A DNA stretch of 64,000 bases from an uncultured Campylobacter sp. (GTDB lineage Bacteria; Campylobacterota; Campylobacteria; Campylobacterales; Campylobacteraceae), in assembly GCF_937973075.1 (NCBI RefSeq), contig NZ_CALBWL010000051.1:8335-72334 (forward strand), given 5' to 3'. Positions 1 through 64,000 of this stretch are shown in pieces. Positions within the stretch are counted from its first letter, which is position 1. Every line of letters begins with the position of its first letter. The position numbers and the translations under genes are program-made. The notes under the pieces were generated by a model that did no database searches, was not told the origin of the DNA, and saw nothing but the letters and a program-made list of their open reading frames with translations.

Positions 1-4
1 TTTT

Positions 5-688
5 TCATACTCGCTCCTTTTTTACCGCTTTGTAGCCGAGCCCGCGCACGGTGATTATCTCAAAGTCCTTGGAGTTTTCAAATTTTGCTCGTAGCTTTTT
101 GATGTGCGTATCTACGACGCGCTCGTCGCTGTCCGTTTCGTAGCCCCAAATTTCGCTCATTATCTCAAATCTCGTAAAAATTCTGCCTGCGTAGCTTAGC
201 AGCAAAAACAAAAGACGAAATTCCTTCGGCGCCAGGCTTATCCGCTCGCCCGCCGCGCAGACGCTAAGCGTATCATAATCAAGCTCGCTTCCGCCTATGA
301 GAAGCCGCTTTTCGTTCGCGATCTTTGCGCGCCTTAGCAGCGCATGCACGCGCAGCACGAGCTCTTTTAAATTTATCGGCTTGCTCATATAATCGTCCGC
401 GCCGCTTTTAAAGCCCGTTTGCATATCCTCGATCTCACTTTTTGCCGTTATAATCAGTATCGGTTGGCTCTTGCCGTCGCGCCTAACGTATCTGCTAAGC
501 TCAAAGCCGTCCATCTTAGGCATCATCACGTCCGAGATGATTAGATCGAAGTGCGCCTCATCCAGCGCTTCTGCCGCCTGCTTGCCATCGAAGGCGCAGC
601 TCACGCTAAAGCCCTCATCAAGCAGCTTTTCCCTTATCGCCGAGCTCAAAATCTCGTCGTCTTCGACTAGTAAAATATTAAGCATCAT
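5..688 (-). CDS. OmpR/PhoB-family response regulator
   Basis: 227-aa ORF. N-terminal receiver domain (LLVEDDE, DLIISDVMMPKMDG, SKP). C-terminal winged helix (VDTHIKKLRAKF, TVRGLGYK). Confidence 0.9.
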   Translation of the reverse strand: MMLNILLVEDDEILSSAIREKLLDEGFSVSCAFDGKQAAEALDEAHFDLIISDVMMPKMDGFELSRYVRRDGKSQPILIITAKSEIEDMQTGFKSGADDYMSKPINLKELVLRVHALLRRAKIANEKRLLIGGSELDYDTLSVCAAGERISLAPKEFRLLFLLLSYAGRIFTRFEIMSEIWGYETDSDERVVDTHIKKLRAKFENSKDFEIITVRGLGYKAVKKERV

Positions 689-783
689 CGCTCCCGTTTT
701 GATAAATTTATGCGCTTAAATTTATACATAAAATTTTAAGAAACAATGAGATATTATACGTAAATTTTTTCAAGGAGTAAAGA

Positions 784-1461
784 ATGAATTTCAAAAAAAC
801 AATATCGGTTGCCGTTATTGCGGCTTCGGTGCTGGCGCTATTTAGCGGATGCGCGAAAGAGAGCTCTCGCGTAGTGCAAACCCCTACGGTAGCAAGCATA
901 AACACCAACTACTCTGGCGAGCGAATTGCCGTGTCGGTAGGACGCTTTAACAACCAATCCTCTTACAACAACGGCGTGTTCTCCGACGGCGAGGACAGAC
1001 TGGGCAACCAAGCGCAGACAATTTTGATCTCAAGCTTACAGCAAACAGGACGTTTCTCGGTGCTTGACCGCACGAATATGCGCGCCATCAAAGAGGAAAG
1101 CGCAATCTCTAAAAGCGCACAAAATCTAAAAGGTGCCAGATACGTTATCACCGGCGACGTGACGGAATTTGGCCGCAAGACGACCGGAGATCATCAGCTG
1201 TTTGGAATTTTAGGCAAGGGAAAGACCCAAACCGCGTATTCTAAAGTAAATTTAAACATCGTTGACGTCAGAACGTCCGAGGTGGTCTTTTCGACTCAGG
1301 GCGCGGGCGAATACGAGCTATCAAACCGCGAAGTGCTAGGTTTCGGCGGCACTGCGGGCTATGATTCGACGCTAAACGGCAAGGTGTTAAGTCTGGCGAT
1401 CATCGAAGCGGTCAATAATCTCGTAAACGGCCTTGAAAACGGCGCGTTTAAGCTAAGATAA
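784..1461 (+). CDS. CsgG-family outer-membrane lipoprotein
   Basis: Signal peptide with lipobox LFSGC. The body resembles the CsgG family (RIAVSVGRFNNQS, LQQTGRFSVLDR, ARYVITGDVTEFG). RBS AAGGAG lies upstream. Confidence 0.8.
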   Translation: MNFKKTISVAVIAASVLALFSGCAKESSRVVQTPTVASINTNYSGERIAVSVGRFNNQSSYNNGVFSDGEDRLGNQAQTILISSLQQTGRFSVLDRTNMRAIKEESAISKSAQNLKGARYVITGDVTEFGRKTTGDHQLFGILGKGKTQTAYSKVNLNIVDVRTSEVVFSTQGAGEYELSNREVLGFGGTAGYDSTLNGKVLSLAIIEAVNNLVNGLENGAFKLR

Positions 1462-1470
1462 GGATAAAAT

Positions 1471-3115: not shown

Positions 3116-3536
3116 AGCGTCAAATTTAGCGGCGAAATTTGAAAGGATTTCGCGAAAAATAAAATTTCGGGTAAGTATCGCAAGAGGCGAGTACGAAACT
3201 CACCTGCGAAGCAGGTTTATGGCAGCGCTCGCGGAAACGGCGCACCCCTTTTACGATTTATTTTCAGTAAATTTACAAGGGCAATGTAACTACGCAATGT
3301 AACTACCGCGTACTGATCTAGCGATACCGAGGGCGGGAACGGGGAAATTTAAAACGAAATTTTGATTTTAACGGCGCGGTTTGCGGGCTCGCGGCGAAAT
3401 TTAGCGGCGATCTGGGCGGATTTGACGCTCAAATTTTACGTTAAATTTAGACGCGCCTGCTATTTTGCATTTTGACCCGTCTGGCGTCAAATTTTTACAA
3501 AAATCATAAGATTTAGCCAAATTTAAAGGATGAAAT

Positions 3537-4223: not shown

Positions 4224-4308
4224 ACGAAATTTGCCCGTCCGATCAGACGGCGGCAAAATTTGTAAATTTAATAATGACAAAATGCCGTTTATAACGAAAT
4301 TTTAGAAT

Positions 4309-4446
4309 ATGGGCTATGTATATTTTCTGGGGCGAGGCTCGGGATACGCCAAAATAGGGGCAAAAAACGAGCTGCAAAGACGCGCGGAGTTTGAGCAAAA
4401 ATTTGAGGCGTGCAAACAAAAGGCGCGGGAAATTTTAAATTTATAG
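4309..4446 (+). pseudogene. Possible remnant of a T5orf172/GIY-YIG-like gene (45 codons)
   Basis: The ORF MGYVYFLGRGSGYAKIGAKNELQRR resembles the N-terminal GYVY..KIG motif of T5orf172-type domains, but it stops after 45 aa. It is below the ORF-track cutoff. Confidence 0.25.
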
Positions 4447-4768
4447 GTATCGCTAAAATTTCACTCTTTGCGGCGAGCTAAATTTAAAACCGAAAATTTC
4501 TAAAAAATATAGCAAAGAGATTGCAAGATGTAAAATTTAAGTCGTAAAATTTTACGCATTTTTCTACTGAAAATTCTCATACCTTTTTTCAAATATGCGC
4601 TCACGCCTCTGCGTGCGTATCGCAACGAAAATCGGCTAAATTTTAAAAGTCCGATTTGCGCTTGCGGCGACGGGGCGCGTAAAACGCCGCAGATATTAGA
4701 AAAATATCCGTAAATTTAGCCGAAACGTAGTAAAATTCGAGCGGTAAATTAAGCAAAAGGAGCGATCG

Positions 4769-5451
4769 GTGGAAAATTTATTACTAGCGCAGCTGCGCGA
4801 GGCGCTACCGCAGGGCATGCGCGTGCCGAGCGAGACCCAGGCGCTTTATGCGTGGATCGAAGCAAACGGCTTTTATGACGACGCGGGCGGGCGCAGACGC
4901 GGCTATCTCTACCCGCAAGATCGGCTGCAACAGAGCTGGAGCGACGATGAGCGCGAGGGCGGCACGGACATCGTATTTTTCACGGATGAGCCGAAAAATC
5001 GCGACGAGGAGCTAAGGTATTGGTTTTACGGCGAGGATCGCGAGCTTGCCGCGGAGATCAAGCAGAGGCTTTGCGTGTTTGCAGGCAGCGGCTCGGAGGG
5101 CTCGATGTGCGCGCTGTGGCTGGATGATGCGGGCGAGACTAGACCCCGCACATGGGCTCCGGCTCGGGCTCGACCATGACCTGCGTTTTGGCTCATAGCG
5201 GGCTTGATTTTTTGCGATTGCTCGCGATCGGATACGATGAAATCTGCTGGGATGAGGATTTTAGCGCGCCGCCAAACAGCGAGGAGGACGATTTTTTCGT
5301 GCATCCAAACGTAAAATTTCAGCAGTGGCTTAAGGACACGTTTAAAACGACGATCCCGCAAACCGCGCTTGAGCTCGTCACGCCCGCGCATATGGACGAC
5401 GAGAAGCCGAGCGATGAGTTTTTGATCTGGGTAAATTGCGTCGCAGGATAA
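4769..5451 (+). pseudogene. SMI1/KNR4-like (immunity-type) gene split by a frameshift
   Basis: ORFs 4769-5179 and 5152-5451 read as one protein (..CALWLDDAGETR / HMGSGSGSTMTCVLAHSGLDFLRLLAIGYDE..) if one base is added near the C run at 5144-5147. The overall pattern is SMI1/KNR4-like. Confidence 0.55.
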
Positions 5452-5457
5452 AATTTA

Positions 5458-5480
5458 AAGCGGCTTTTTTGCGCCGCTTG
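5458..5480. terminator. Hairpin after the SMI1-like gene
   Basis: AAGCGGC-TTTTTTGC-GCCGCTT forms a 7-bp GC-rich stem directly after the stop codon. Confidence 0.4.
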
Positions 5481-5772
5481 ATGAAGTATTGCGAGGTTTG
5501 CTTTCATAGGAAACCTTGTGAAATTTAAGCTTTTACTGCTAATTTAAAGAGCGTAAATTTAATGGATATCTTTTGATTAAAATTTTAATGGTAGCGGTAT
5601 CCATTTGGAAAAGTATTAATCATCTATTACTGCTTCTGCTACTTTTAAAATTTTTAATAAATCTGCCTGATAGAATTTAACTCTTTGCAGTGTGGCGGTA
5701 GAATTTTGCTGCTATTTGAAATAAGACGTGATAGAAAAGTTGGCACGTTTTTAAGAATCCAAATAAATTTAG

Positions 5773-6585
5773 CTAAATTCCGCGTGGATGGGTTATATCA
5801 AAGCATGGAAGTTCTGTTGGTTTATTAGCAAAGAACTGATTGAGACTAAATTCTAAATCAGAAAAAACAAGGCTAAAAGCTTTTCGGTAGTTTTGGCGAT
5901 AGGTTGTCTTTAATGTCGTATCAGAGAAAATTGTGACTGCAGCGACGTAGGCAGCGCGCGCAGAGCAAAAAAAATGGCGCGCATTAGTATATCGGCGTAG
6001 CGCTTTAGGCTTCGTATGAAAGATAGCATCCAAACAATCCTTCTGTCAAATATCCGCATAAATTACGGCGGATTTTTATCTAGGGTATGGGGGTGAGCTA
6101 CAAGGCGTATCCAGCAAATACGTCTTTGCAGCTAGCTGCATGCAGGCATTTAAAAGACGGAAAGTAAAAGCAAACAAGTTAAAATCTGAAAGTATTAATA
6201 GCTGCGCAATAGGCAAATTGCGCTCAGTGGCGAAGTGAGCGCAAACTTTTGGCAGCTTTAAGCTATCTGCACGCGCACAGGGTAGCAAGTGCTACTTTAC
6301 TTTAAATCTCTTTTTGGATCTTGGAATTTGCACGCTCAGAGCAGAAAGCACTAAGCAGCTAGGCGCGGAGATATCGTATTTTGCACCGCTTTCGCAATAG
6401 TTCTCTTTTATACCTGCTGGCTGATGCGTTTCTAGCAAGACGAGTGATTGTTGTTTTGACATTAATGAGGATGAGCTTGGCGGGCGCATAGACAGCATAT
6501 ACAAGCTCAGTAGCGGTAAGCACGTAGTTCGCAGCGTTTTATGATTAGCGGAGAGTTTGAGCTGAGTGCTGTGGCGGATATTCAT
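5773..6585 (-). pseudogene. Decayed AraC-type regulator (three in-frame stops)
   Basis: ORF fragments 6292-6585, 6076-6288 and 5773-6033 share one frame. They are interrupted by TAG (6292-6294), TAA (6076-6078) and TGA (6046-6048). The C-terminal fragment FSDTTLKTTYRQNYRKAFSLVFSDL resembles the second HTH of AraC. Confidence 0.35.
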
Positions 6586-6938
6586 AGTTTTTTTAACGTC
6601 TTGTGGAAATTTAAGACGAGTGTTATTGCGAGCGGGTGCAAATTTTTAGGTAAAATTTTATGCTTATTGATTTTTATATGGCTGTACTAAAGCATGCTTC
6701 ATACGTCAATTTCTTATAAATTTTTAACGTAAACTTTTTGCCCATTTAGGGGGAGAGGAGAAGGGAGTAAAATTTTTCGATCAAAAGGGCGTGGGATTAT
6801 GTCAGCAGGCTGCGTGTGCAACGCGAAAATAGCAATGCAGGAAGCGTATCGAGTAGTGCGGATAAAAAGACGATCTTCATCCGTCACTTTTTAAAATAAA
6901 ATTTTGCGACTAAAAAGGCGATTGTGCCTTTGTAAATT

Positions 6939-7466: not shown

Positions 7467-7750
7467 ATTTTCTCCTTGTTTTGAATTTCTTACATTATAT
7501 GTTTTTTGGCTGAAATTTTGATTTATCATCTAGCATAATATGGATATGAAATTTCAAATAAAATTTTACTTCCACTCAAATACTACTGGAAGGCTTATAG
7601 TTTTTTGCATGCGATTAGAAGTTAAATTTTATAAGCAAATATGGCAAACCCCAAAATCGATAGAATTTTATCTATTAAATTGTATTAAAAATTTTAAATG
7701 GTATGAAAAATGCGCCGAAAAATTCGGCGCAAATGAAAGGAATACTAATC

Positions 7751-9094: not shown

Positions 9095-9380
9095 TGCAAA
9101 ACTCCTTATAAAGTAATTTTTTTAACGGCGCGCAGAATTCTAAAGATTTCAGCAGGTAAAATCCGAATTATCTTTATAATTCAGTGGTCGGAATTCTATG
9201 CGGAATTTTATCCTAAAATTTCGCAAGTGGAATTTTACTCCACGGAAGCTAAATCTAACTTGATGAAATTCTGCATCTACGGAATTCTGCACGATCGATC
9301 TTATCTATTTTGAATTCTACTTTGCGGAATTTCGCCTGTTAAATTAACTGATGAAATTCCGCGCCGCACCTAGTTTGGAA

Positions 9381-10787: not shown

Positions 10788-11101
10788 AATAAGTCCTTTC
10801 GTTGAAATTGTTAATGGAATTTTAAAGCTTTTAGTATTAAAAGTAGCTTAAAACGTAACGAAAAATTAAAATTTAGAAATTAGTATGATTGTTTAAGGCT
10901 TTAAATAGAATTTTACTTAAAAATATTTTGGAATTCGCTACTAAGGCATAATTACACTTTAATAGAAATATCGTATCGCACGCAGATTATGAAAGTGGAA
11001 TTATAAAAATTCTTGTTTAGCTTAAATTATAATTTGAAAAATTTGAAGTTAAAGGCGGTAAAATGGAATTTTTCATTGTATTTATATTTACTAGAACGGA
11101 G

Positions 11102-12875: not shown

Positions 12876-13652
12876 TTAAAACGATGGAATGATTGCGCCT
12901 TTATATTGCGTCTCGATGAATTTTTTCACTTTCTCGCTTTGAATTGCTTTATCTAGCGCCTTGATTTTAGGGCTGTTTTCGTTGCCTTCTTTAACGCTAA
13001 TAACATTTGTGTAAGGGTTGCCCTCAGCCTTTTCTAAAAATAGCGAATCCTTGATTGGGTTTAAATTTGCGTTAAAGGCAAAATTTGAGTTGATAACCGC
13101 AATATCGACATCGCCCAGGGTGCGTGGAAGCGCGGCGCCTTCAAGCTCTAAAATTTCTAAATTTTTAGGATTTTTCGTGACATCTAGCGGCGTGCGAAGC
13201 TTAGCGTTTTGATCTACTTCGATGAGCCCTGCGGCTACGAGCAGATCAAGAGCGCGGCTTTCGTTAGTCGGATCGTTCGGCACGGCAACTTTGGCACCGT
13301 TTTTAAGATCTTTTAAATTTTTAATCTTATGGCTGTAGATGCCCATCGGCTCTAAGTGCACACCCACGGTCGCTTTTAACTTCGTGCCTTTATTAGCGTT
13401 AAATTCCTCCATATATGGCACGTGCTGGAAAAATCCCGCATCCACGTCGCCGCTATCAGTAGCGAGGTTAGGGGTTACGTAGTCGTTGAAAACCTTGACC
13501 TCAAGATCGTAGCCTTGGGCTTTTAGATCAGGCTTAATCTGCTCTAAAATTTCGGCATGCGGTATCGGAGTAGCGGCGACTACGATTTTTTCGGCAAGAG
13601 CGAAGCTGACGACGCTGGCGCTAAGAAGCGAAGCGAGAAGAAATTTCTTCAT
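12876..13652 (-). CDS. metQ: MetQ/NlpA-family methionine-binding protein
   Basis: 258 aa with a signal peptide. NlpA-family motifs present (FNDYVTPN, FQHVPYM, AVPNDPTNESRAL). Confidence 0.85.
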   Translation of the reverse strand: MKKFLLASLLSASVVSFALAEKIVVAATPIPHAEILEQIKPDLKAQGYDLEVKVFNDYVTPNLATDSGDVDAGFFQHVPYMEEFNANKGTKLKATVGVHLEPMGIYSHKIKNLKDLKNGAKVAVPNDPTNESRALDLLVAAGLIEVDQNAKLRTPLDVTKNPKNLEILELEGAALPRTLGDVDIAVINSNFAFNANLNPIKDSLFLEKAEGNPYTNVISVKEGNENSPKIKALDKAIQSEKVKKFIETQYKGAIIPSF

Positions 13653-13885
13653 ATTTAATCCTTTTGGTTAAAATTTCGCGGTATTATAGCAGGTAGAATT
13701 TTTAATGTCAAGTGTTTTTATATGATTTTTTAAAATTTTATCTAAAATATTCTAAAATTCGATATTTTTACATATATTTAAATACTACATTTTATTGTAT
13801 AATGCAGAATTGGCACGCTTTAATGAGCGCTTTACATAAATTCCGCTAAAATCGCAAAATTTAAAATTTTAAAAAAAGGCTAAAG

Positions 13886-25482: not shown

Positions 25483-25594
25483 CGGCTGATCCTTTGAAAT
25501 AAGATAGTCAATTGTAGCAAAATTTTGCTTGCGTGTTAATCAAAGATTTATCGTGAGGGTTTAAAATTTGGTAACTTCCAACAAAGGAGCGCAC

Positions 25595-28469: not shown

Positions 28470-28470
28470 G

Positions 28471-43990: not shown

Positions 43991-44020
43991 ACAGCAGTTT
44001 TGCGCCAGTGCGACGTTAGC

Positions 44021-46398: not shown

Positions 46399-47417
46399 AT
46401 GAATGAGCAAAATTTAAAATATATCGCAAATTTAAAAGTGCAGGACGTGCCGTGGAGCAGGCTCACGACCGCTTACGGCAGGGCGAGCGGATTTCCCAAA
46501 ATTTTTGAGAAACTCGCACGGGCAATCGAAGCTTGTGATGCGGCGCGCGGCTTGGGCGGCGAGCAAAATTTAAAAAGCAAGCCCGGAGCAGGGCAAAATT
46601 TAAAAAGCAAGTCCGGTTGCGGGAAAAATTCTACGGATGCGACAAGATGCGGCGCGGCGCAAAATTCCATAAATTTAGCGCAAAAGAGCGAGTCCAAATT
46701 TCAAAAGGCGGATAACGAGGCTGCGAAATTTAAAGCGGGTGGAGAGACGGAGCTTAAAACGGGCACGGCGAAGTGCGGCGAGGCGGAATCTAAGAGTGCG
46801 GATGGCGCGGCGATAAAATTTAAAGCGAGCCAGGCGAGTAAATTTAAAACGAGCGCGGCGGATAAGAGCTCGGATGCGAGCGAGCGGGAAAAATTTGACG
46901 CCAAGGCCCTTCAGAACGCGCTTGATAAGATTTTTAACGAGATAGAACATCAAAGTACGCTTTGGCACGAACCCCTTTTGCGCTGCTGTTTTTGGCGCGC
47001 ATCTTTATGCAGGCGCGCGCTGCGGCGGACAAAAACGCGAATAAAAATAATCAAAACGCTGCGGCAGACGAAATCGGTGGAAATAATCAGAATGCGGCGG
47101 ATAGAAATGCGGATAAAAGCCGGCAAAATGATGCAGCGGGCTTTATCGCGGCTCGGCTCGGCGGATTTTTTGCGTTTGTGATTGAGATTTGCGATGATGC
47201 CGATAAGATCTCGCACGCAGCGCCGCTGGCGAGGTTTTCGGATATGCTTGCGGAAAAATATCTGTGGCCGCAGAGCGACGAGAATGACGAGGAGCGCTGG
47301 GAGGAGTATTTTTACGACGATGAGCTATTTTACAGCCTCTATTTTTATTCGCGGGCGGTTTTGGACGCGACGGGAGTGGACTTTGCGCAGTTTAAGCCTG
47401 GGTCGGGTGGCGTTTAA
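46399..47417 (+). pseudogene. Hypothetical gene with a low-complexity core, split by a frameshift
   Basis: ORF 46399-47181 reads plausibly to ..NEIEHQSTLWH and then becomes Arg-rich nonsense. ORF 46962-47417 continues plausibly (TPFALLFLARIF...YFYDDELFYSLYFYSRAVL). The junction is at the C/T runs at 46972-46979. Confidence 0.5.
46564..46616 (+). repeat. Direct repeat with 30-bp period (GQNLKSK units)
   Basis: CAAAATTTAAAAAGCAAGCCCGG at 46564 and CAAAATTTAAAAAGCAAGTCCGG at 46594, with one mismatch. Confidence 0.8.
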
Positions 47418-47663
47418 GGCTACCGCCGCCTCGCCCCTTGGCTCTAAATTTACGGAGACGCGGCGCGTTTTGACGGCGCTTTGTTTAAATTTAGACTTCA
47501 AAATTTTAAAATTTCGCCCAAAAGTCGCGGTAGACGGAATTCGCAGATCGTCTTTTAAATTTAAAATTCGCGCGATTTTTGATCGGCGGTATGATTAAGG
47601 CGCCGGTAGCACTTTTAAATTTAGATCGCCGCGAAGCTTCAAACCCGCTTGCGGCAGAGCTTT

Positions 47664-47864
47664 TTATGTGGTTTTAAAAAGATACCAATTCGGCGCAATT
47701 TTTTCTATCATTATAAACTCGCTAGGACTAATTTGCGGCAGATCCGCCTCGTCTTGCACCCGCAAAAAGCCCATGGAGTTACCCGCCGATGAGCAGCATT
47801 AAATTTTTTGCATTGTTACCGTATAAATTCCAGAATTTATACGCTACTTCGATGCTTTCAGATT
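47664..47864 (-). pseudogene. Short frameshifted gene remnant
   Basis: The minus strand reads MLDKSESIEVAYKFWNLYGNNAKNLMLLIGG, then a stop. The adjacent frame continues NSMGFLRVQDEADLPQISPSEFIMIEKIAPNWYLFKTT. Both pieces are below the ORF cutoff. Confidence 0.25.
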
Positions 47865-47942
47865 TATCTAGCATTTCGCCACATAAATCTCAGAAATTTC
47901 ATATCGACGTAAAATTCTACATCGTCACGTAAGCTAGCGGCG

Positions 47943-48578
47943 TTACATAAAATTTATATTCAAAAGCCTATCTCTAACCTCGATATCCTCCAGGTTTAGA
48001 TCGAGTTCATCTTTTAAATATTTTTCTAAATTTTTTCGTTCAAAATCGCTTAACATCGCAAGTGGGATACTGACGAATACCCCATTTTCGCCGTCTAAAA
48101 ATATCAAGACATATAAATTTATACTTTTTATCCTACCCCTTAGCCGCAAAATGGCAAAGCATATCAAATCCATCAAATACAATATCCACGAAAAAGCCAT
48201 TAAAATAAGCTTTTTAAAGGTGCCAATATTTTTATCATAGCTAAATTCTTCTACCGCAAAATCTACGAATTTATAAATCGCTACCTTATCAATACGCGCT
48301 ATGTCGATAGATTTTTTTGTAACTATCGTTTCTTGATAGTTTGCAGAGGATTTGTTATATTCTATTCTGCCGGGATAGAAGCTTAAAAATTTGTTTTTAT
48401 TTATCCCCAAAAGGCCTATTAAGGTTAAAATCCAAACTCCAACCCAGTAATGCCAGTGAATACCCCTAGTGACGAGTTCAAAAAGAATCATGGTGATGGA
48501 CGAAGTAGCGCCCAGATCGATATAAATCCTGATCCAATAATCTTTGATTATAAAAAGTGGCATTTGCTCTTTTTGCAT
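47943..48578 (-). CDS. Hypothetical membrane protein in a markedly AT-rich gene
   Basis: 211 aa with about four hydrophobic segments. By eye the GC content is far below that of neighbouring hemC. No family recognised. Confidence 0.6.
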   Translation of the reverse strand: MQKEQMPLFIIKDYWIRIYIDLGATSSITMILFELVTRGIHWHYWVGVWILTLIGLLGINKNKFLSFYPGRIEYNKSSANYQETIVTKKSIDIARIDKVAIYKFVDFAVEEFSYDKNIGTFKKLILMAFSWILYLMDLICFAILRLRGRIKSINLYVLIFLDGENGVFVSIPLAMLSDFERKNLEKYLKDELDLNLEDIEVRDRLLNINFM

Positions 48579-48587
48579 TAGGGCTTC

Positions 48588-49517
48588 TTATAGGCTCGCC
48601 ATCTCTTCAGCGCGCGCGAGAAGCTGCTTTGCGCCCTTTTCGATAAAAACGCGTGCAAGCTCCGCACCTACGCTTTGGTATTGAGATTTTTGTGCGACGA
48701 TGCTTTGGTGGATGCTCTCGCTGCCGTCAGGTAGGCCCACTATCGCGCTGATGTGGATATTTTCGCCCTCAAGGCGCGCGTTGATGCCGATAGGAACCTG
48801 GCAGCCGCCCTCCAAAACCCTGACGAAATCCCGTTCCACGGTCGTTTCGATAATCGCGCGTTCATCTTTTAAAAATTCTATCGCGCGTAGAATTTGCGGC
48901 TCGTCCACCGCCTCGATGCCGAGCGCTCCTTGCCCCATAGCTGGGATCATCTGCGAGATTTCAAAGGGCGCTACGTGCTTTACCTCGGCGCGCAAATTTA
49001 ATCGGTTGATGCCCGCCATCGCTAAGATGATCGCGTCGAATTCCCCGTCTTTTAGCCTTCGCAGGCGGGTTTGGACGTTGCCGCGCAAGGATATAACCTC
49101 TAAATCGGGGCGCATGCTAAGCAGCTGCATCTTGCGGCGAAGGCTCGTGGTACCGACTTTTGCGCCGCGAGGTAGTTCGCCGAATTTAGAGTATTTTTCG
49201 CTGATCATCGCATCGCGCACATCCTCGCGCGCGCAGATCGCCGCTAGCACTAGCCCCTGCGGAAACTCCACGGGCACGTCTTTTAGGCTATGCACTGCGA
49301 TGTGTGCTTCGCCGCGAAGCATACTCTCCTCAAGTTCCTTCGTAAAAAGCCCCTTGCCGCCAATCTTTGCAAGCGGCGTGTCTAAAATTTTATCGCCTTT
49401 GGTTTTCATGCTTTTTAGCTGCGCTTGGATGCCGCGGGCGTTAAGCAGCGATGCGATGTGCTCGCTCTGCCATAGTGCAAGCACGCTGCCGCGCGTAGCG
49501 ATGATCAAATTTTTCAT
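48588..49517 (-). CDS. hemC: Hydroxymethylbilane synthase (porphobilinogen deaminase)
   Basis: 309 aa. [20 protein letters not shown] and GTSSLRR-type motifs. Confidence 0.95.
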
Positions 49518-49966
49518 TTTTCCTCTCCTATGCTTTTTCGAATCTCGATTTCGTTCTCTTCGATCACCTCAACGTCGATTACATCGTCGCTTGCGTGGCT
49601 GCGTCGCCAAAATTTTCGCTCTCTTTTTTCGGAATTTTCGCTGCTAGTGTTAAATTTAGGCACATCGCTGGTGACGCAGTAAAATGACGCAGTGATTATG
49701 CAAACGCCTAAAATATCGCCGAAAATGCCCGGTGCAATGAGAAAAACGCCGCCTACGACGAAGCCCACGCCGCTTAAAATTTCTTTCGGCGAGATTTTCA
49801 TTAGATTAAAAAAGCCCATCCACGAGCGGTTTGCTACGACGTATCCGCCTAAAATCGCGCTTATGACGATCTCCACCGCATACGCCGCAAAGCCGTTTGC
49901 GCTTACGAAATAATAGGTCGTAAATGCCTCAATTATCAGATATGGAACGATCAAAAGCCTAAACAT
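49514..49966 (-). CDS. fxsA: FxsA-family membrane protein
   Basis: 150 aa. The N-terminal hydrophobic helices and the [12 protein letters not shown] segment resemble FxsA/UPF0716. ATGA overlap with hemC. Confidence 0.7.
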
Positions 49967-51112: not shown

Positions 51113-51232
51113 AAATTTTGCCTTTATTTTTGAAAATTTGCGCGTATTATAGCCGTTTTTCTAGGATTTAATTAAATAGAAACTAAAAATATGTTAATAT
51201 GCGCGGTTAAAATTTTAAAACTAAGGTTTGAG

Positions 51233-53851
51233 ATGTTTAAAAAGGTCATCCACGGGATTTTCGGTACTAAAAACGATAGGATCGTCAAACAATACGCCAA
51301 GCGTGCAGCACAGATCAGTGCGCTCGAGGAAAACTACGCAGCGATGGACGATGCGGCGCTTAAGGCGGAATTTGAAGCGTTAAGAGCGCAAGTTCGCGCA
51401 GGCGAAAAGAGCACGGACGACGTGCTTAACGAAGTGTTTGCTATCGTGCGAGAGGCGGGCAAAAGAGTGCTAAATATGCGCCACTTCGACGTTCAGCTGA
51501 TAGGCGGTTTGGTGCTAAACGACGGCGCGATTGCTGAGATGAAAACGGGCGAGGGAAAGACCCTCGTAGCGACTTTGGCGGTAGTGCTAAATGCGATGGA
51601 GGGCAAGGGCGTGCATGTCGTGACCGTAAACGACTATCTAGCTAAGCGCGATGCCGCGCAAATGGGCGAACTATATGAATTTTTAGGGCTTAGTACCGGT
51701 GTAATCGTAGGCGGCGAATACGATGACGCCAAGCGCAAGGCTGCATACGCGTGCGACATCACCTACGGCACGAACAACGAGTTTGGCTTTGACTATCTGC
51801 GCGATAATATGAAATTTAACGCGGATGAAAAGGTGCAGCGCGGGCATCATTTCGTAATCGTCGATGAAGTAGATAGCATCCTGATCGACGAAGCCAGGAC
51901 GCCGCTAATCATCTCGGGTCCTACGAACCGCACTCTAGACGGCTACATCAAGGCAAATGAAGTAGCTCACCAAATGATCCGCGGCGAGGCGCCAGCCGAT
52001 CCGAAAGGCAAAGCTACGGGCGATTTTACCGTAGATGAGAAGAACCGCGCCGTTTTGATTACGGAGGCAGAAATTTCAAAAGCCGAGAAGCTTTTTGGCG
52101 TCGATAACCTCTATAGTCTCGAAAATGCCGTGCTTAGCCACTACCTTGATCAAGCACTTAAGGCAAATTATCTATTTGAAAAGGATGTGCATTACGTCGT
52201 GCGCGACGGGCAGGTCATAATCGTGGATGAATTTACGGGTCGTCTTAGCGAGGGTCGCAGATTCAGCGAAGGGCTCCATCAGGCTCTTGAAGCTAAAGAG
52301 GGTGTGCAGATCCAAGAGGAGAGCCAAACTCTTGCCGACATTACCTTTCAAAACTACTTCCGTCTTTACGAAAAACTCGCCGGTATGACGGGTACGGCAC
52401 AGACGGAAGCAACGGAATTTTCTCAAATTTACAAACTCGAAGTGGTCTCTATCCCTACGAATGTGCCGGTCATCAGAAAGGATCAAAACGATCTTATCTA
52501 CAAAACCGAGCGCGAGAAATTTGATGCCGTCATAAATGAGATCAAGCGGCTAAATTCTAAAGGTCAGCCCGTGCTAGTGGGTACGGCGTCGATCGAAAAG
52601 AGCGAGAAGCTGCACGAGCTTTTGGTTAAAGAAAACATCGCGCACTCCGTGCTAAACGCCAAAAATCACGAGCGCGAGGCGCAGATCATCAAAGACGCAG
52701 GCGTAAAGGGCGCAGTTACGATCGCTACGAATATGGCGGGACGTGGCGTGGATATCCGTATAGACGATGAAGTGCGCGCTTTGGGCGGGCTATATATTTT
52801 AGGTACCGAGCGCCACGAAAGCCGCCGCATCGATAATCAGCTCCGCGGACGAAGCGGGCGACAGGGCGATCCGGGCGAGAGTAGGTTTTTCTTAAGCTTG
52901 GAGGATAATCTGCTTAGAATTTTTGGCAGCGACAAGATCAAAAATATCATGGATCGCTTGGGTTTAAAAGACGGCGAACATATCGAATCAGGTATGGTTT
53001 CGCGCGCCGTAGAAAACGCGCAGAAAAAGGTCGAGAGCTTGCATTTTGAAGCGCGTAAAAATATCTTAGAATACGACGACGTCGCAAACGAGCAGCGCAA
53101 GACGATCTATAAATATCGCAACGAGCTTTTGGATCCAGACTACGATCTGAAAGACAAAATCATTCAAAACCGCGAGGAGTACATCTCTAGCGTGCTTGAG
53201 GAGCTTGAAATTTTCGACGGCGCAAATATCAAAGAGGTCGATAAATTCCCGATCGTCGCCAAAATTGCTCAAGAAACGGGCGAGGTACTCGAAAATAGCG
53301 AGCTTGAGAAGGTCGATGATTTCAAAGAGCTGAAAGAAAAGATCATCGGCGCGCTTGCCGTTTCGTATGAAAACAAGATGGCGTCGATTGATCCGCAGCA
53401 GCGCAAAAGTATCGAAAAGATGCTTTATTTGCAGATCGTCGATCGCGACTGGCGGGAGCATCTGTATCAGATGGATATCCTAAAAGCGGGCATCGGACTT
53501 CGCGGCTACAACCACAAAGACCCGCTTACGGAGTATAAAAAGGAGAGCTACAATCTCTTTATGGAGCTTGTAATGCGCCTTAAATCCGATAGCATCCGCT
53601 TGCTGCATTCGATCCAGTTTAAATCTAGGGAGGAGATAGAAGCCGAGCAGCGTGCGATGCAGGAGCGTATGGAGAGCTCAAACGCCAAAGAACTCGCCGC
53701 TGCAAGCACGAATGAAGCGCAGCTAAAGGGCTCAGACGAGTTCGGCGACAAAAAGCCTAAGCGAAACGATCCTTGCCCTTGCGGCAGCGGCAAAAAATAC
53801 AAAGACTGCCACGGCAAGGGCGGTCCTAAAAAAGGCGGCTTTGCGAGGTAG
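51233..53851 (+). CDS. secA: Preprotein translocase ATPase SecA
   Basis: I placed the start at [12 protein letters not shown], which follows [14 protein letters not shown] Walker [20 protein letters not shown], and a C-terminal zinc motif [14 protein letters not shown]. Confidence 0.97.
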
Positions 53852-54544
53852 GCGCGGCGATCGGTCGTAATATCGCGCGATCGGTGATTTCGATTGCGAG
53901 CATTGCGTAATTGGTGCTTTTCGACCTTGCTTTGCTTCTGTGCTCAGCGGATATGTCGCGGGCGAGAGCGTCATAAAATTTTAAAGGGACTTGATCGCGA
54001 GGCGGTGCGGACGGCGCGCAAAGCTGCGCGATGGGGCGGAATTTTGGTTTTAAAATTTCAAAGCGTGCCTGATGCTTTGCCGCATATTTTTCATAGCGCT
54101 GTTGCGGTGCGCCGTGCGGCAAAACGTGAACGGCGCACGGTGCTTAAATTTAGCGTGCGGCTAGGATATTGCGCGTATTTGAAATTTTAAATTTATGCGA
54201 TTGTGGGAGAGCTTTTTAAGCGAAATCCGCTTTTTAAATTTTAAGAATTTCAAAATTCTAAAAGATTTGGAATTTCTAAAAATTTTAAAATTTCAAGTCG
54301 TTTGAAATTTTAAAATTTAGAATTCGGGTTTAAAATTTCAAAGTTTTGGTAAAGAGGTCTGTTTGATTTGCCGTATCCGATATCTCTTGGGGTAAATTTC
54401 ATTTTATGTAAGTAGATTTCGGCGCGATTTTAAATTTTCAAAACTCGCCGGAGCTTTTATATTTGAAGGCGCAAAACCTATTTTTGGAATTTTAAAATTC
54501 CAAAATACTTAAAATTTCACATATAATTTAGCGCTAAATTTTAT

Positions 54545-55759: not shown

Positions 55760-56110
55760 ATTTAAACGCGGCGCTTAAAATTTAGCTAAATTTTAAAATT
55801 TCAGAGCAGCGCGGTTATATATTTAGCAGTGTATTTGGCGCGGCATTTCGGCGCGTGGGTAGAGGCTGCGCGATCTTGCGCGGCGCGCATCGCGTAAAAT
55901 TGCACTAAATACGATTTGAGTCGCCAGAATTTTGATTCTTGCGCGAGATTATAAGCTGCGCGAAGCCTAAATTTTGACGAAATTTGTGTCGTTAGAATTC
56001 GCCAAAATTTTAAATTTCAAAGGGGATAAAATTTTTATGAGTGCTTTGAAAAATTTTATGAAATTTTGCAACCAATCAAAGATAAAATCATAAAAATTTT
56101 GAAAGGAGCT

Positions 56111-56248
56111 ATGGTGCAAAAGATCGTTTTGTTTCTGTGCGCGGCGCTGTTTCTATGCGGCTGCTCTAGGAGCGGACCGCAAGATGTCCCAGAGCCAGAG
56201 CAAAATAAGGCACCGAGCCACCATTATACAGGCTACTATTACGCATAG
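56111..56248 (+). CDS. Small lipoprotein (45 aa)
   Basis: I placed the start at MVQKIVLFLCAALFLCGC, which follows GAAAGGAG. Lipobox LCGC. Confidence 0.5.
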   Translation: MVQKIVLFLCAALFLCGCSRSGPQDVPEPEQNKAPSHHYTGYYYA

Positions 56249-56549
56249 CGTATATTGCGCGGCGGGCGGCGATACGAGACGTTTAACGGCGAGAAAATGG
56301 AAACATTGTAGTTCTTGCTCATTCGTGGACAAAAGCTCTCAAGCCTGCAATACGAGCCTTAGCAGCGTCTCGGCCTGAATGTAGCGGCGACAAGGCGTCC
56401 ATCCGTCTATAATGACGATAAAATTTAGGCTTATTTGAGCAGGACGAAATTCTTTTTAAAATTCTTTCGAATTCCCATAAATCCTGCTAAATAAATCTAA
56501 ATTTTATAAATTTTAGGGTAACATTCCCTATTTTTCAAAAAGGCTTTAA

Positions 56550-58262: not shown

Positions 58263-59642
58263 ATGCAAATAAATAAAATTTTCATAGCGAGCGATCACGC
58301 GGGCTTTCGTGCCAAGGAGCAAGCCAAAAAAGCGCTCGCCGCTTTAGGTTACGAAGCGGTCGATCTTGGCACGCACAGCGCAGAAGCGAGCGTGGACTAT
58401 CCCGATTTTGCGGACACACTGGCTGATAAAATTTTAGCCGAATGTGAAGCCTGCGCGCGAAGTGGAAATTTTAAAGAAAACGACGGCATAAATTCTGCTG
58501 CAGCCGCGGAAAATTCTGAAGCAGGCGGTAATAGCGGCAGCGAAAATTCCAGCGCGAGTATAAACGGTAGCGGAAATTTTAACGACGCCGTACAATGTAG
58601 CGGGAAAAATGAAAATTTTAACGTTATAAAAAATGCTAGTCGTCAAAATTTTAACGCTAGCGAAAGCATGACTACCTGCGTAAACGCAGCCGTAAGCCCG
58701 AATGCGAGCAAAGATAAAATTTTAAATTCCACCGACTACGGCATTTACGGCGTTTTGATTTGCGGTACTGGCATCGGTATCAGCATCGCTGCAAATCGCC
58801 ACGCTCACATCCGCTGCGCGCTGTGTCATGACGCGACGAGCGCTAGACTAGCTAGAGAGCACAACGACGCCAACGTCCTAGCCTTCGGCGAGCGATTAAT
58901 GGGCGCGCTGGTGATCGGAGATATGATTAGGGCGTTTTTTAGCACCGATTTTGCGGGCGGTAGGCACATTAAGCGCGTCGCAAAGCTAGGTGCTTGCGGT
59001 AGTGCGAATTGCGCGCATGGATTTGATGGGGAGAATTTCATGCAGAACTCCGCTCAAAATTTTACGGAACAAAGCTATAGCGCTAATTTAAATGGGCGGA
59101 ATTCCAAATTAAGCTTCGGTGGTAAAAATCCTTCCGACAAAAATCCTATCGACACGGATTCCGCGTCAAATTTTGCACGGAGCTTTAACGATAAAAATTC
59201 CTTATTTACCGGCGAGAATTCCTTGATAGGCTTTTGCGGTGCACGTCATATAAATTTAGATTCGACACACGCAAAGATAATCTTTAATGAGAAAAATCCG
59301 CTAGATAAAAATTCCACTAGCACAAATTCTACGTTAAATTTTACGCGCGCGAGCGTTTGCGAGAAAAATTTTGCTCAAAAAGCTAGCCGCAAATATTTTG
59401 TCGGTTTGAACCCAGCAATTATAAATTTCAAGGCTACAAATTCCGTCTGTGTGAGTGTTAAGCTAAAAAGCATGAATTGCGCTAGTGCGGGTTTAACAGA
59501 TGCGAATTCTGCTATTACGAGCGTAAATTTAAAGGAAGCAAATCTTTCTAGTGCGTATTTTAAAAACCTAAATTCTGTCTATTTTAACGCAACACCCGCT
59601 ACTATGCGCTTTGCAAATCCAAATGAAGGAGGCGAGCAATGA
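58263..59642 (+). CDS. rpiB: Ribose-5-phosphate isomerase B, expanded by an internal insertion of about 98 aa and a C-terminal extension of about 217 aa
   Basis: The RpiB/LacAB core is split: IFIASDHAGF..VDYPDFA (aa 1-60) and YGVLICGTGIGISIAANR..ANVLAFGERL..GGRHIKRV (aa 159-242). The total is 459 aa. The stop overlaps the next ATG (ATGA). Confidence 0.75.
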   Translation: MQINKIFIASDHAGFRAKEQAKKALAALGYEAVDLGTHSAEASVDYPDFADTLADKILAECEACARSGNFKENDGINSAAAAENSEAGGNSGSENSSASINGSGNFNDAVQCSGKNENFNVIKNASRQNFNASESMTTCVNAAVSPNASKDKILNSTDYGIYGVLICGTGIGISIAANRHAHIRCALCHDATSARLAREHNDANVLAFGERLMGALVIGDMIRAFFSTDFAGGRHIKRVAKLGACGSANCAHGFDGENFMQNSAQNFTEQSYSANLNGRNSKLSFGGKNPSDKNPIDTDSASNFARSFNDKNSLFTGENSLIGFCGARHINLDSTHAKIIFNEKNPLDKNSTSTNSTLNFTRASVCEKNFAQKASRKYFVGLNPAIINFKATNSVCVSVKLKSMNCASAGLTDANSAITSVNLKEANLSSAYFKNLNSVYFNATPATMRFANPNEGGEQ

Positions 59643-61046: not shown

Positions 61047-62481
61047 AATTAACGAGATAGAGGCGGATTTTGAAGTTATTTTGGTCGTGGATAAAAATTT
61101 AAATCACGAATTTATTAAAGACGCGGATAAGTTTGCGCTTTTTAACTACAAAGGCGAGGGCAATCTACTCCTTGCCGAGAGCGGGCGGCTGTACGTAGGG
61201 ATCAAAGAGCTTAGCTTCGATAGGTTGCGAGCGGCGCTTGCGAGCGCATACAATGTGCTTAAGGGCTACGCGATCAAAAATTTTAAAATCGCCTTTTATA
61301 AATGCGGCTGCGACCGCAGAAGCACGATGGCGATGGTCGAGGGCGTGCTTTTGGGCGGTTATGAGTTTAACAAATACAAAAGCGATAAAAAAAACTCCAG
61401 CTTGAATGAAATTTTAATCTCGACGCAGGAGTACGGCGGCAGTAGCCTCGACGTGCAAAAGATGAACTACGGCGTGCAGCAGGGCACCGTGATGGCAAAC
61501 GCCGCAAATTTCACGCGCGACGGCGTCAATGAGATTCCTGAAATTTACACGCCCGAAAAGATGGCGAGCGAGGCTGAAATTTTGGCGTCTAACTACGACG
61601 ACGTGAGCGTTAAAATTTACGACGAGGACTTTTTGCGCGAGCAGAATATGAATGCGTTTTTGGCGGTCAATCGCTCCAGCGCTCATCCACCGCGCCTCAT
61701 CCATCTGATCTATAAGCCGCAGCGCTGCTTAAAGCGCGTCGTTTTCGTGGGCAAAGGGCTTACTTATGACAGCGGCGGGCTAAGTCTGAAGCCGAGCGAT
61801 TATATGCTTACGATGAAAAGCGACAAAAGCGGCGCGCTTGCCGCGATGGGCATCATCAAGGGCGCCGCTGAGCTTGAGCTGCCGTTTGAGATACATGCGG
61901 TCATCGGCGCTACCGAGAATATGATCGGCGGCGATTCGTATAAGCCCGACGACGTGCTACTTAGCCGCAGCGGCGTAAGCATAGAGGTGCGAAACACCGA
62001 CGCAGAGGGCAGGCTCGTGCTCGCCGACTGCTTAAGCTACGCGCAGGATCTTGCCCCCGATCTGCTAATCGATATGGCGACGCTAACAGGCGCTTGCGTT
62101 GTGGGGCTTGGCGAATACACTAGCGGCATCATGGGAAACAGCGAGGAGCTAAAGCGTAAATTTAAAGATCTTAGCGATTGTAGCGGCGAGCTATTTAGCA
62201 TTTTGGAATTTAACGATTATCTGCGCGAGCTAATCAAAAGCAGTATCGCGGATGTCTCCAACTGCGCTTCCAGCAGGTACGGCGGCGCGATAACTGCGGG
62301 ACTATTTTTGGATAAATTTATAAAAGACGAGTATAAAGACAGGTGGCTGCACCTTGATATCGCAGGACCTGCGTATCTGGAAAAGGCGTGGGGCTATTAC
62401 GCCGCGGGCGCGACTGGCGCAGGCGTGAGAGCAAACTTATATTTCTTGCAGGCTCTAGCCAAAGAGCTGAAGGACGCGTAA
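61021..62481 (+). CDS. pepA: Leucyl aminopeptidase (M17)
   Basis: 486 aa. GKGLTYDSGG and the signature NTDAEGRLVLAD. Confidence 0.93.
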   Translation: MKVKLLDRKINEIEADFEVILVVDKNLNHEFIKDADKFALFNYKGEGNLLLAESGRLYVGIKELSFDRLRAALASAYNVLKGYAIKNFKIAFYKCGCDRRSTMAMVEGVLLGGYEFNKYKSDKKNSSLNEILISTQEYGGSSLDVQKMNYGVQQGTVMANAANFTRDGVNEIPEIYTPEKMASEAEILASNYDDVSVKIYDEDFLREQNMNAFLAVNRSSAHPPRLIHLIYKPQRCLKRVVFVGKGLTYDSGGLSLKPSDYMLTMKSDKSGALAAMGIIKGAAELELPFEIHAVIGATENMIGGDSYKPDDVLLSRSGVSIEVRNTDAEGRLVLADCLSYAQDLAPDLLIDMATLTGACVVGLGEYTSGIMGNSEELKRKFKDLSDCSGELFSILEFNDYLRELIKSSIADVSNCASSRYGGAITAGLFLDKFIKDEYKDRWLHLDIAGPAYLEKAWGYYAAGATGAGVRANLYFLQALAKELKDA

Positions 62482-63585
62482 ATGGGGCTTTCAGTAGGGA
62501 TCGTAGGGCTTCCGAACGTCGGTAAATCCACCACTTTTAATGCACTTAGCGGCGCGCAAAACGCGCAGGCGCAGAACTATCCATTTTGCACGATCGAGCC
62601 CAATAAAGCGGTCGTGCCCGTGCCCGATGCCAGGCTCGGTAAGCTAGCACAGATCGTTAATCCGCAGCGTATCGTGCATTCTACGATAGAATTCGTAGAT
62701 ATCGCGGGCCTCGTGCGCGGAGCTAGCAAAGGCGAGGGGCTAGGGAATAAATTTCTTTCAAATATCCGCGAGTGCGAGATCATCCTTCATATCGTGCGCT
62801 GCTTCGAAAGCGGCGACATAACTCACGTCGAAGGCTGCGTCGATCCTATCCGCGACATCGAGATCATCGAAACCGAGCTTATTTTAGCAGACATCGAGCA
62901 GCTTGGCCGCAAGATCGAGCGCCTCGGCAAGGAAGCCAAAGCAAATCAAAAGGGCGCTAAAGAGGCGCTAGCCTTGGCAAACGAGCTTTTAGCGCATCTA
63001 AACGACGGCAAGCCCGCTTCAAATTTTGCGCTCAAAGAGGACGAAAGCTACATCGCTTTAAATCGCGAGCTGCGCCTGCTTAGCGCCAAAGATGTAATCT
63101 ACGGCGCAAATGTGGACGAAGACGGCATCGCGCAGGATAACGAATATGTCGCGCGCGTAAGAGAATACGCAAATGCCCGCGGCGCCGAGGTGATCAAGCT
63201 CTGCGCCAAGATCGAAGAGGAGCTGATAGGACTAAGCGACGAGGAGACGCACGAGATGCTGCAAAGCCTGGGCGCACAGCAAAGCGGGCTGGAGCTCATC
63301 ATCAAGCGCTCCTTCGCAAAGCTCAGCCTCATCAGCTACTTTACTGCCGGTGAGATGGAGGTGCGCGCGTGGACGATCACGAAGGGCTGGAAGGCTCCGA
63401 AGGCCGCGAGCGTGATCCACAACGACTTTGAGCGCGGATTTATCAGAGCCGAGGTGATCGGATTTGATGATTTTATCGCGTGCGGCGGCGAGAGCAGGGC
63501 GAAAGAAGCGGGCAAAATGCGCCTTGAGGGCAAGGACTACGTCGTGCAAGACGGCGATGTGATGCACTTTAGATTTAATGTTTAA
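62482..63585 (+). CDS. ychF: Ribosome-binding ATPase YchF
   Basis: 367 aa. GLPNVGKST P-loop, NYPFCTIEPN, DIAGLV, and a C-terminal TGS-like domain (GFIRAEV). Confidence 0.95.
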   Translation: MGLSVGIVGLPNVGKSTTFNALSGAQNAQAQNYPFCTIEPNKAVVPVPDARLGKLAQIVNPQRIVHSTIEFVDIAGLVRGASKGEGLGNKFLSNIRECEIILHIVRCFESGDITHVEGCVDPIRDIEIIETELILADIEQLGRKIERLGKEAKANQKGAKEALALANELLAHLNDGKPASNFALKEDESYIALNRELRLLSAKDVIYGANVDEDGIAQDNEYVARVREYANARGAEVIKLCAKIEEELIGLSDEETHEMLQSLGAQQSGLELIIKRSFAKLSLISYFTAGEMEVRAWTITKGWKAPKAASVIHNDFERGFIRAEVIGFDDFIACGGESRAKEAGKMRLEGKDYVVQDGDVMHFRFNV

Positions 63586-64000
63586 ATTTGCGCTGCATTC
63601 GAGCGAAATTTAAAATTTTACGGAGTTTTAATTTACGCCGAATTTGCACACCCGATTCAAATTTTTAAATTTGCGAAATTTGAATTTCTATGGCGTGTGA
63701 GAATTTGAAAATTTAAAAATTTTGGTTGAAAGCAGCGATTTAAAATTTTGAAATTTCATAAAAAATTCCCGGGATCGAACGTATGCTCGGGTTCGGCTCG
63801 ATTTTAAAATTATATAAATTTAACTCGCGCAGGATGGAACTTTGAATATTATCGTAAGCAAGCTCAACTTTACAATTCTATGCACTTTAATCCGCTGTAC
63901 CTTTCGGTGGCGAATTTTGCGCACGGACTATAGATATGAATCTTTTGCCAAAATCCGAAGCTAAAAGTAAAATCACGAGCAGAATCGAAAATTTAAGCGT

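Follow-up and report, generated by a model that had tools for sequence, protein, structure and literature searches.

RAATTY density and conservation in the genes and spacers of an uncultured oral Campylobacter lineage

The hexamer RAATTY (R, A or G; Y, C or T) is strongly over-represented and conserved in both the genes and the intergenic spacers of a 64,000-nucleotide (nt) stretch of contig NZ_CALBWL010000051.1 from an uncultured Campylobacter sp. (hereafter, the window), which has a guanine-plus-cytosine (GC) content of 47.5%. The original prediction for this DNA was that its long spacers are inflated by GC-rich blocks punctuated with RAATTY cores. We found that the RAATTY constraint is genus-wide and genome-wide, not intergenic only, and that the word is forced into genes via synonymous codon choice. 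The explanation towards which we lean, with some reserve, is that RAATTY is a methyl tag for DNA uptake, of the type set by the CtsM methyltransferase of C. jejuni, and that it is held against a GC-rich neutral background.

RAATTY excess and its sequence specificity

RAATTY occurred 686 times in the 64 kb (10.7 per kb), against 222 ± 14 expected, and none of 100 dinucleotide shuffles reached this count, which bears out the earlier claim that its density exceeds what composition predicts. The R..Y context held 83% of the window's AATT tetramers, and every curated gene (55 of 55, after an antisense shadow open reading frame [ORF] at 48700–49647 on the + strand was taken out) had at least one RAATTY. 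The non-coding DNA as a whole (14.8 kb) contained 303 sites; the ten spacers named in the original prediction, whose coordinates agree with the ORF map, contained 168 in 5,194 nt (32 per kb), and each was at 10–20 times the mononucleotide expectation. Against simulated Markov backgrounds, the observed-to-expected ratio in non-coding DNA was 10.2 at order 0, 3.5 at order 1, 2.9 at order 2, 1.3 at order 3, and 1.0 at order 4. Because the order-4 model is built in part from the pentamers of RAATTY itself, its ratio is uninformative as a null and is not a refutation. Chance and composition were ruled out by the dinucleotide shuffles, Markov orders 0–3, and the synonymous shuffles described below.

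The excess was not confined to the spacers, as had been supposed. Coding DNA contained 7.5 RAATTY per kb at 50% GC, with 84% of genic AATT in the R..Y context. When codons were swapped within each of the 55 genes, with the protein sequence and codon usage held fixed, 151.7 ± 8.4 sites were expected and 374 were observed (2.5 times), so that the k-mer comparison proposed earlier, split by coding and intergenic sequence, gave an excess in both compartments. All three frames contributed (136, 105, and 133 observed vs 88, 18, and 45 expected). In the same shuffles, AAATTT was the most over-represented of the 4,096 hexamers in coding DNA (220 vs 71, z = 23.7), followed directly by its own overlapping neighbours; we found no publication describing an AAATTT excess. 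GAATTT and AAATTC were each enriched approximately two-fold, and GAATTC was neutral. Meanwhile, the words that differ from RAATTY in their flanks were depleted, with observed-to-expected ratios of 0.46 for AAATTA, 0.53 for AAATTG, 0.14 for CAATTG, 0.66 for TAATTA, and 0.26 for AATTAA; TAATTT was depleted too, and A6/T6 stood at expectation (1.0–1.1). Next to AATT, A (72%) and G (18%) predominated over T (6%) and C (4%), and the two flanks were independent. These flank preferences and depletions indicate that the favoured word is RAATTY itself, not general AT-richness. Avoidance of TA steps was also considered and rejected: A6/T6 is not in excess, TTTAAA is enriched relative to synonymous shuffling, and ATTTTA/TAAAAT lead the order-3 Markov ranking.

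Extension of the word beyond six bases was weak, T occurring at position −2 in 40–57% of sites. The repeated extended cores noted in the original prediction fared unevenly: AAATTTTAAAATTT was enriched (10 copies vs 1.7 expected at order 4), and TTTAAATTT had no excess beyond that of AAATTT plus its context (ratio 1.07 at order 3). The spacing from site to site peaked at 7–8 nt. With only these spacings and no 10–11 nt periodicity, bending through long-range phasing of the sites was rejected.

An ordinary explanation would be that the spacers consist of AT-rich promoter, UP-element, or curved A-tract DNA that looks odd only against a GC-rich genome. The spacers are indeed AT-richer than the genes (39% vs 49% GC), A3T3 tracts are the classic bent DNA of textbooks, and the divergent promoter spacers are motif-dense, at 26 per kb. 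However, RAATTY density was flat, at about 20–35 per kb, up to ~600 nt upstream of start codons, well past the first ~100 nt or so in which promoter and UP-element tracts lie, and convergent spacers contained 14–33 per kb. The flat upstream density and the motif-bearing convergent spacers indicate that the spacers are not promoter DNA, as the original prediction had stated. Furthermore, RAATTY is 2.5-fold enriched at synonymous sites within genes, outgroups of similar GC content lack the signal, and the absence of an A6/T6 excess, together with the depletion of AAATTA and TAATTT beside the enrichment of AAATTC, is not obviously predicted by AT-richness or curvature. The coding-sequence and flank-specificity results thus largely refute this explanation, and we regard it as very unlikely.

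Conservation footprint and spacer architecture

The SecA protein of the window (51191–53851) shares 97–99% identity with SecA from 19 metagenome-assembled genome loci of uncultured Campylobacter sp., and its closest named relatives are C. showae, C. concisus, and C. portucalensis (72–75% identity). An identical LolC-like protein is encoded on contigs from human oral metagenomes (PRJEB6997). By habitat and GC content, the lineage may belong to the C. gracilis group. Close-relative alignments were made with 11 genomes (41.2–63.6 kb aligned, 92–95% identity; two at about 85–92%). In the symmetrised comparison with these 11 relatives, the AATT core changed at 1.1–1.8%, the R and Y positions at 5–6%, and the flanks at 6–12% (10–12% at the directly adjacent bases), and this footprint was alike in coding and non-coding DNA. 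The control words had no footprint: AT-only hexamers without RAATTY overlap changed at 5–7% and GC-only hexamers at 7–8%. Among non-coding A/T bases, 2.0% of cells differed inside RAATTY vs 8.65% elsewhere; at third codon positions, the values were 3.6% vs 17.3%. More than half of the altered sites (57%) remained RAATTY through terminal A/G or T/C swaps. With a footprint that spans the hexamer and flanks that prefer R and Y, the data speak for a constraint specific to the RAATTY sequence itself among the three kinds of origin that had been proposed, selective, structural, and mutational. The footprint, the flanks, and the repeat comparison described below disfavour bending or AT tracts, slippage, and the spread of an element.

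The spacers form a mosaic of AT and GC runs. AT-only runs of at least 9 nt numbered 98 (26 expected), and GC-only runs of at least 6 nt numbered 63 (13 expected); 129 of the 194 AT-only runs of at least 6 nt contained RAATTY. The GC blocks were 65% GC, and shorter than the 15–40 nt first estimated, with a median of 9 nt and an interquartile range of 4–16 nt. Between relatives, they changed at 11–21%, indistinguishable from four-fold degenerate sites (16.3%), and in the secA–lolC alignment AAATTT-type cores were near-invariant and the GC blocks between them varied freely. The hexamer footprint and the four-fold rate of the GC blocks together characterise the spacers as neutral filler with embedded constrained hexamers. 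The neutral composition of the lineage is GC-rich (57% GC at third codon positions, 65% in the spacer filler), and the conserved AT words therefore look like islands; because no protein constraint applies in non-coding DNA, RAATTY is approximately three times as dense there as in coding DNA. The islands and this higher density give the spacers their visible alternation of GC blocks and AAATTT.

The ten spacers of the original prediction, and features within them, were as follows.

3116–3536: spacer between tandem genes; 11 RAATTY, 26 per kb, 43% GC.
4224–4768: spacer; 16 RAATTY, 29 per kb, 39% GC.
18768–19198: spacer; 10 RAATTY; a 103-aa ORF (19121–19432) has no Pfam match.
21260–21503: spacer between convergent genes, so that no promoter is expected; 8 RAATTY, 33 per kb; period-8 TAAAATTT array at 21257–21294.
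26333–26756: densest spacer, 3' of the ComEA-like gene; 23 RAATTY, 54 per kb, 29% GC.
38982–39915: longest listed spacer; 33 RAATTY; a 108-aa ORF (39158–39484) has no Pfam match.
43991–44726: spacer; 16 RAATTY; tandem array of 2.9 copies of 33 nt at 44037–44132.
53852–54544: secA–lolC spacer, 693 nt; 22 RAATTY.
53976–54012: tandem-duplication polymorphism of ~45 nt, made of one GC block and one AAATTT core.
54181–54350: RAATTY cluster, 12 sites in 170 nt, near-invariant in 10 genomes.
55760–56549: lolC–folD spacer, 790 nt, listed earlier as 55760–56110; 19 RAATTY.
63586–64000: spacer running off the window end; 16 RAATTY, 39 per kb.

Further spacers of like build, which had not been listed, are these.

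9095–9380: 10 RAATTY (GAATTC or GAATTT at several sites), 35 per kb.
7530–7750, 10788–11101, 13653–13885, and 22125–22651: like build.

The earlier count by eye of about 12 sites in 54181–54350 proved exact, and the GC blocks neighbouring this cluster differed at 17–21%. In 43991–44726, AT-only runs changed at 5.4% between relatives and the remainder at 16.0%. Sister genomes at 92–95% identity carried syntenic spacers of similar length with the motif conserved, rather than motif-free ones, and the cores were not length-polymorphic. In three relatives, 55760–56446 is swapped for a segment of ~360 nt. A degenerate repeat of ~60 nt was visible by eye around 39300–39440, within the longest listed spacer.

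We also considered whether the spacers are filled by a mobile or repeated element resembling a miniature inverted-repeat transposable element (MITE) or a repetitive extragenic palindrome (REP), by decayed genes, or by microsatellite slippage. A handful of arrays with 2–4.5 copies were reported by Tandem Repeats Finder, those in spacers being the short ones at 21257–21294, 44037–44132, and 54231–54294; one 45-nt tandem-duplication polymorphism and a 190-nt insertion in some relatives point in the same direction. In contrast, all-against-all comparison of the spacers gave only 18–40 nt matches built of the motif, many of them palindromic (e.g., TTTTGGAATTTTAAAATTCCAAAA), and no element family or consensus; weak self-inverted matches were seen within 54223–54347. 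REP/MITE-type repeats, which would have many copies, a consensus of at least 30 nt, and defined ends, were therefore rejected, as were microsatellite or slippage arrays as the bulk of the spacers, the arrays being few and short and the core positions invariant across relatives. By tblastx and blastn, the spacers had no similarity to the coding DNA of the window or to ~60 more distant loci, and with no repeat family either, an origin from pseudogenes or mobile DNA was rejected. None of ten spacer ORFs had a Pfam match, independent public gene calls placed nothing in 53852–54544 or 55760–56549 (the spacers flanking lolC), and the window contained no Rfam family at gathering thresholds and no tRNA by ARAGORN. 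As the spacers are also syntenic and of like length between relatives, we consider filling by elements, decayed genes, or slippage the least probable of the explanations weighed here.

A separate observation concerns the insertion just mentioned. In four relatives (L004, L007, L012, and L018), ~190 nt of AT-rich DNA with two copies of TCCCGTTGGGA (L004, about 13265–13475; L012, about 13257–13462; alignment columns 707–895) is absent from the window at ~54448–54474. Possibly it represents a small element, either mobile or structured.

Distribution across the genus and candidate functions

At loci around secA, all Campylobacter groups had 5–13 RAATTY per kb across a GC range of 27–48%: 13.3 per kb in C. 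portucalensis (26.5% GC), 8.1 in the C. jejuni group (29%), 9.1 in C. concisus (38%), 9.2 in C. showae-like loci (46%), and 10.7 in the window lineage (48%). Outgroup loci had 2.3 per kb (Sulfurospirillum-type) and 1.5 per kb (Nitratiruptor/Hydrogenimonas-type). An excess over synonymous shuffling of 1.24–2.5 (z 3 to 25) was found in all 16 Campylobacter sets, and the ratio was 0.74–0.92 in five of seven outgroup loci; two outgroup loci of 57% GC gave 1.3 and 1.7, with expected counts of only 11–12. Between distant Campylobacter, 6–8 of 13 secA RAATTY positions were common vs 3–5 expected, although the numbers are small, and in the outgroups site sharing equalled expectation.

These data also bear on a mutational explanation, in which RAATTY as a whole, or the adenines within it, are hypomutable, or near-cognates were converted into it during the GC push, leaving functionless surviving AT islands. 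A roughly constant density despite the wide GC range would fit it, as would the positional sharing of about half of the secA sites, and hypomutability would likewise give a low substitution rate in the core. However, word positions 2 and 3 are equally protected (1.3% and 1.1% change), so that the protection is not that of the methylated adenine alone. AATT outside R..Y is depleted and RAATTY is created by synonymous choice in three frames, which means that site gain, not mere retention, is needed. The mutation rate would have to drop ~10–15-fold relative to four-fold sites, and we know of no precedent for such an effect of N6-methyladenine (m6A). We consider a mutation or repair bias unlikely.

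RAATTY has a known role in the genus. In C. jejuni, CtsM (M.CjeIAI) is an orphan D12-class N6-adenine methyltransferase targeting RAATTY, and this species takes up only DNA with CtsM-methylated RAATTY; on both points the original prediction agrees with published work. Methylation (m6A) falls on the third base of the word in C. jejuni, C. coli, and C. fetus, and, by homology, in C. hyointestinalis. The word occurs about every 60 bp in the C. jejuni genome, and the published motif positions, about 27,500–28,500 per genome, agree with the 8.1 sites per kb of our C. jejuni-group loci. In C. fetus prophages, it is under-represented. The abstract of Beauchamp et al. 2017 is said to describe RAATTY as "an overrepresented 6-bp sequence" in C. 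jejuni. Its over-representation is already known in that species, and the window lineage is a further case; we found no published link between RAATTY and C. gracilis, C. rectus, C. showae, C. concisus, or C. curvus.

The window resembles the C. jejuni CtsM system in the 6-nt degenerate palindrome, the genus, the absolute density (10.7 vs 8.1 per kb), and an excess at synonymous sites, which is 1.4–1.7 times expectation in C. jejuni loci. It differs in its 47.5% GC background, in an excess over composition of ~9-fold vs ~2-fold, in a spacer density that is 2.7 times the coding density vs ~1.0 (C. jejuni locus L059), and in its greatly lengthened spacers. The methylase, the methylation, and the uptake role are established in C. 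jejuni and would be shared by the window lineage. The DNA uptake sequences (DUS) of Neisseriaceae and the uptake signal sequences (USS) of Pasteurellaceae are, like RAATTY, hugely over-represented, tolerated in genes, denser where constraint is low, and conserved between related species, and they are thought to accumulate by uptake-biased recombination. Unlike RAATTY, they are 9–12 nt long, non-palindromic, and present about once per kb, and a receptor reads their plain sequence, whereas the reading of RAATTY in C. jejuni requires its methylation. Being a short degenerate palindrome (6 nt; 10.7 per kb), RAATTY is therefore not a DUS/USS-type uptake sequence but at most an analogue. HIP1 (highly iterated palindrome 1, GCGATCGC) of cyanobacteria is likewise an abundant methylated palindrome in genes and spacers, and it boosts transformation efficiency in a methylation-dependent manner; it is nevertheless another word in another phylum, with no AT islands in GC filler or lengthening of spacers. 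The orphan RAATTY methyltransferases of Spirochaetaceae (Blow et al. 2016) share with CtsM an identical target and clade-wide conservation, but no uptake role has been reported for them.

According to the uptake reading, which we hold to be somewhat more probable than not, RAATTY would be a genus-wide, sequence-specific "self" word in Campylobacter, and the oral lineage would have a C. jejuni-like CtsM system, with an orthologue, methylation of the sites, and dependence of uptake on them. Selection, transformation-biased transmission (molecular drive), or the two together would hold the word at ~10 per kb: tagged alleles would be imported and recombined more frequently, and the accumulation of the motif would thus be driven by uptake.

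The following points weigh against this explanation. From sequence data alone, selection or drive is not distinguishable from a mutation or repair bias that depends strongly on context. One methylated site reportedly suffices for C. jejuni transformation (Beauchamp et al. 2017 again being the source to which this is attributed), and if so, the need for 10–30 sites per kb is not obvious. No published methylome or transformation data were found for the window lineage, and no ORF in the 64-kb window has a DNA methyltransferase domain. The comparisons between genomes cover ~20 kb around secA per genome. Lastly, the explanation covers the density of the motif but not the growth of spacers from ~10 nt to ~700 nt.

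Another possible reader of the word is an abundant genus-specific protein that binds RAATTY, methylated or not, so that density is selected for nucleoid, replication, segregation, or epigenetic roles instead of uptake. Any sequence-specific reader fits a footprint that is exact to the hexamer and flanks that prefer R and Y; spacer sites cluster at 7–8 nt spacings, as in AAATTTTAAAATTT; and the Spirochaetaceae enzymes have been discussed as regulatory. On the other hand, no such RAATTY-binding protein is known, and the sites run evenly through genes, convergent spacers, and up to 600 nt upstream, with no preference for landmarks. Uptake discrimination is the sole function experimentally tied to RAATTY in the genus. 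A binding protein as the main cause therefore seems to us improbable.

Spacer growth, gene context, and implications

The gene order lolA–secA–lolC is common to the window, C. jejuni, and the outgroups. The secA–lolC spacer is 693 nt in the window, ~750 nt in close relatives, 265–450 nt in C. showae-like loci, where it is likewise built of AAATTT cores between GC blocks, ~60 nt in C. concisus, and ~10–40 nt in C. jejuni and the outgroups, in line with the earlier statement that the spacers are longer than those of C. jejuni. The divergent lolA–secA spacer is not inflated (~80 nt in most loci, at most ~140 nt). ORFs of at least 80 aa cover 82% of the window, 81–86% of close relatives, and 80–88% of C. 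showae-like loci, vs 94–96% in C. concisus, 94.5% in C. jejuni L059, 84–95% in other jejuni-group loci, and 92–97% in the outgroups. The ratio of spacer to coding RAATTY density is 2.7 in the window and 2–3 in C. showae and C. concisus, vs ~1.0 in C. jejuni L059 and 0.9–1.4 across the jejuni group. We found no published description linking motif-studded spacers to high GC and low coding density. The only sign of spacer growth was the ~45-nt block-plus-core duplication at 53976–54012, of which most relatives have one copy more than the window; the indels in the BLAST alignments were small ones only and are little informative on this point.

A speculative proposal, to which we give a low probability, is that transformation itself inflates the genome, the RAATTY-bearing filler being driven DNA because uptake and recombination favour tag-rich alleles. 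Block-plus-core units, once duplicated, would spread through the population and stretch spacers from ~10 nt to 300–900 nt, and low-complexity inserts rich in RAATTY would find their way into genes as well, for instance into the RpiB-like ORF below. In the two high-GC groups sampled, the window lineage and the C. showae-like loci, spacer length would be a side effect of uptake bias in genomes whose neutral composition leans towards GC.

The genes and segments concerned here are as follows.

25568–26332 (+): ComEA-like gene; HHH_3 DNA-binding domain at residues 24–81 (E = 3.8e−6, 27.4 bits vs a cut-off of 27).
48588–49517 (−): hemC, porphobilinogen deaminase (Pfam E = 6e−81).
58263–59642 (+): RpiB-like ORF, 459 aa; the sole Pfam match is RpiB.

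RpiB is usually ~145 aa long. The RpiB-like ORF has a low-complexity insertion at approximately residues 60–160 and a long N/F/S/K-rich tail full of NF (AAT-TTY codons), and its matches in relatives are shorter, at only 67–84%. No other gene is as dense in RAATTY (27 sites, 19.6 per kb), and the ORF looks like spacer-type DNA drawn into a reading frame.

The ComEA-like protein is the single competence component seen in the window; the other parts of the machinery would be encoded elsewhere in the genome. It is of the periplasmic helix-hairpin-helix (HHH) protein type, with an N-terminus that resembles a signal peptide by eye. Its C-terminus is a long proline-rich extension with PPPGGMP repeats, which derives from a 21-nt tandem array at 26036–26106, and the gene lies directly 5' of the window's RAATTY-densest spacer.

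Several other segments stood out. The ORF removed from the gene set (315 aa) is antisense to hemC and is a shadow ORF of a kind typical in GC-rich coding DNA. A variable islet at 47811–48584, flanked by conserved genes, fails to align in most relatives at 92–95% identity, which have different DNA of similar length there; it holds a 33%-GC ORF of 211 aa (47943–48578) with no Pfam match. Two neighbouring ORFs at 46399–47598 (+), of 260 and 138 aa, also have no Pfam match; they contain ~17 RAATTY per kb and 24–30 nt tandem arrays at 46565–46630 and 46805–46860, and are candidates either for repeat proteins or for open spacer-like DNA. The 1.76 kb between convergent genes at 5180–6938 has only small ORFs (70–99 aa) without Pfam matches, and 10 RAATTY per kb vs ~24 in other spacers, and is a possible case of decay or of foreign origin. 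Finally, the coding DNA strongly avoids GGCC and CATG, which occur at 0.26 and 0.47, respectively, of the number expected from synonymous shuffling, and GTATAC is absent. Gaps of these kinds are what restriction-modification systems leave.

If the uptake reading is true, the uptake-discrimination system of C. jejuni would be a property of the entire genus, one that overrides codon choice and holds thousands of AT words in place while the genome drifts GC-rich. The oral lineage, with its high GC, would then offer a sensitive natural experiment on how uptake signals accumulate and on the relative parts of selection and drive. In practical terms, RAATTY methylation, for example with a CtsM-type enzyme, would be a candidate route to transforming poorly tractable oral Campylobacter. 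Furthermore, RAATTY density could mark foreign DNA in the genomes of oral Campylobacter, and enrichment based on ApoI/XapI could recover these bacteria from oral metagenomes.

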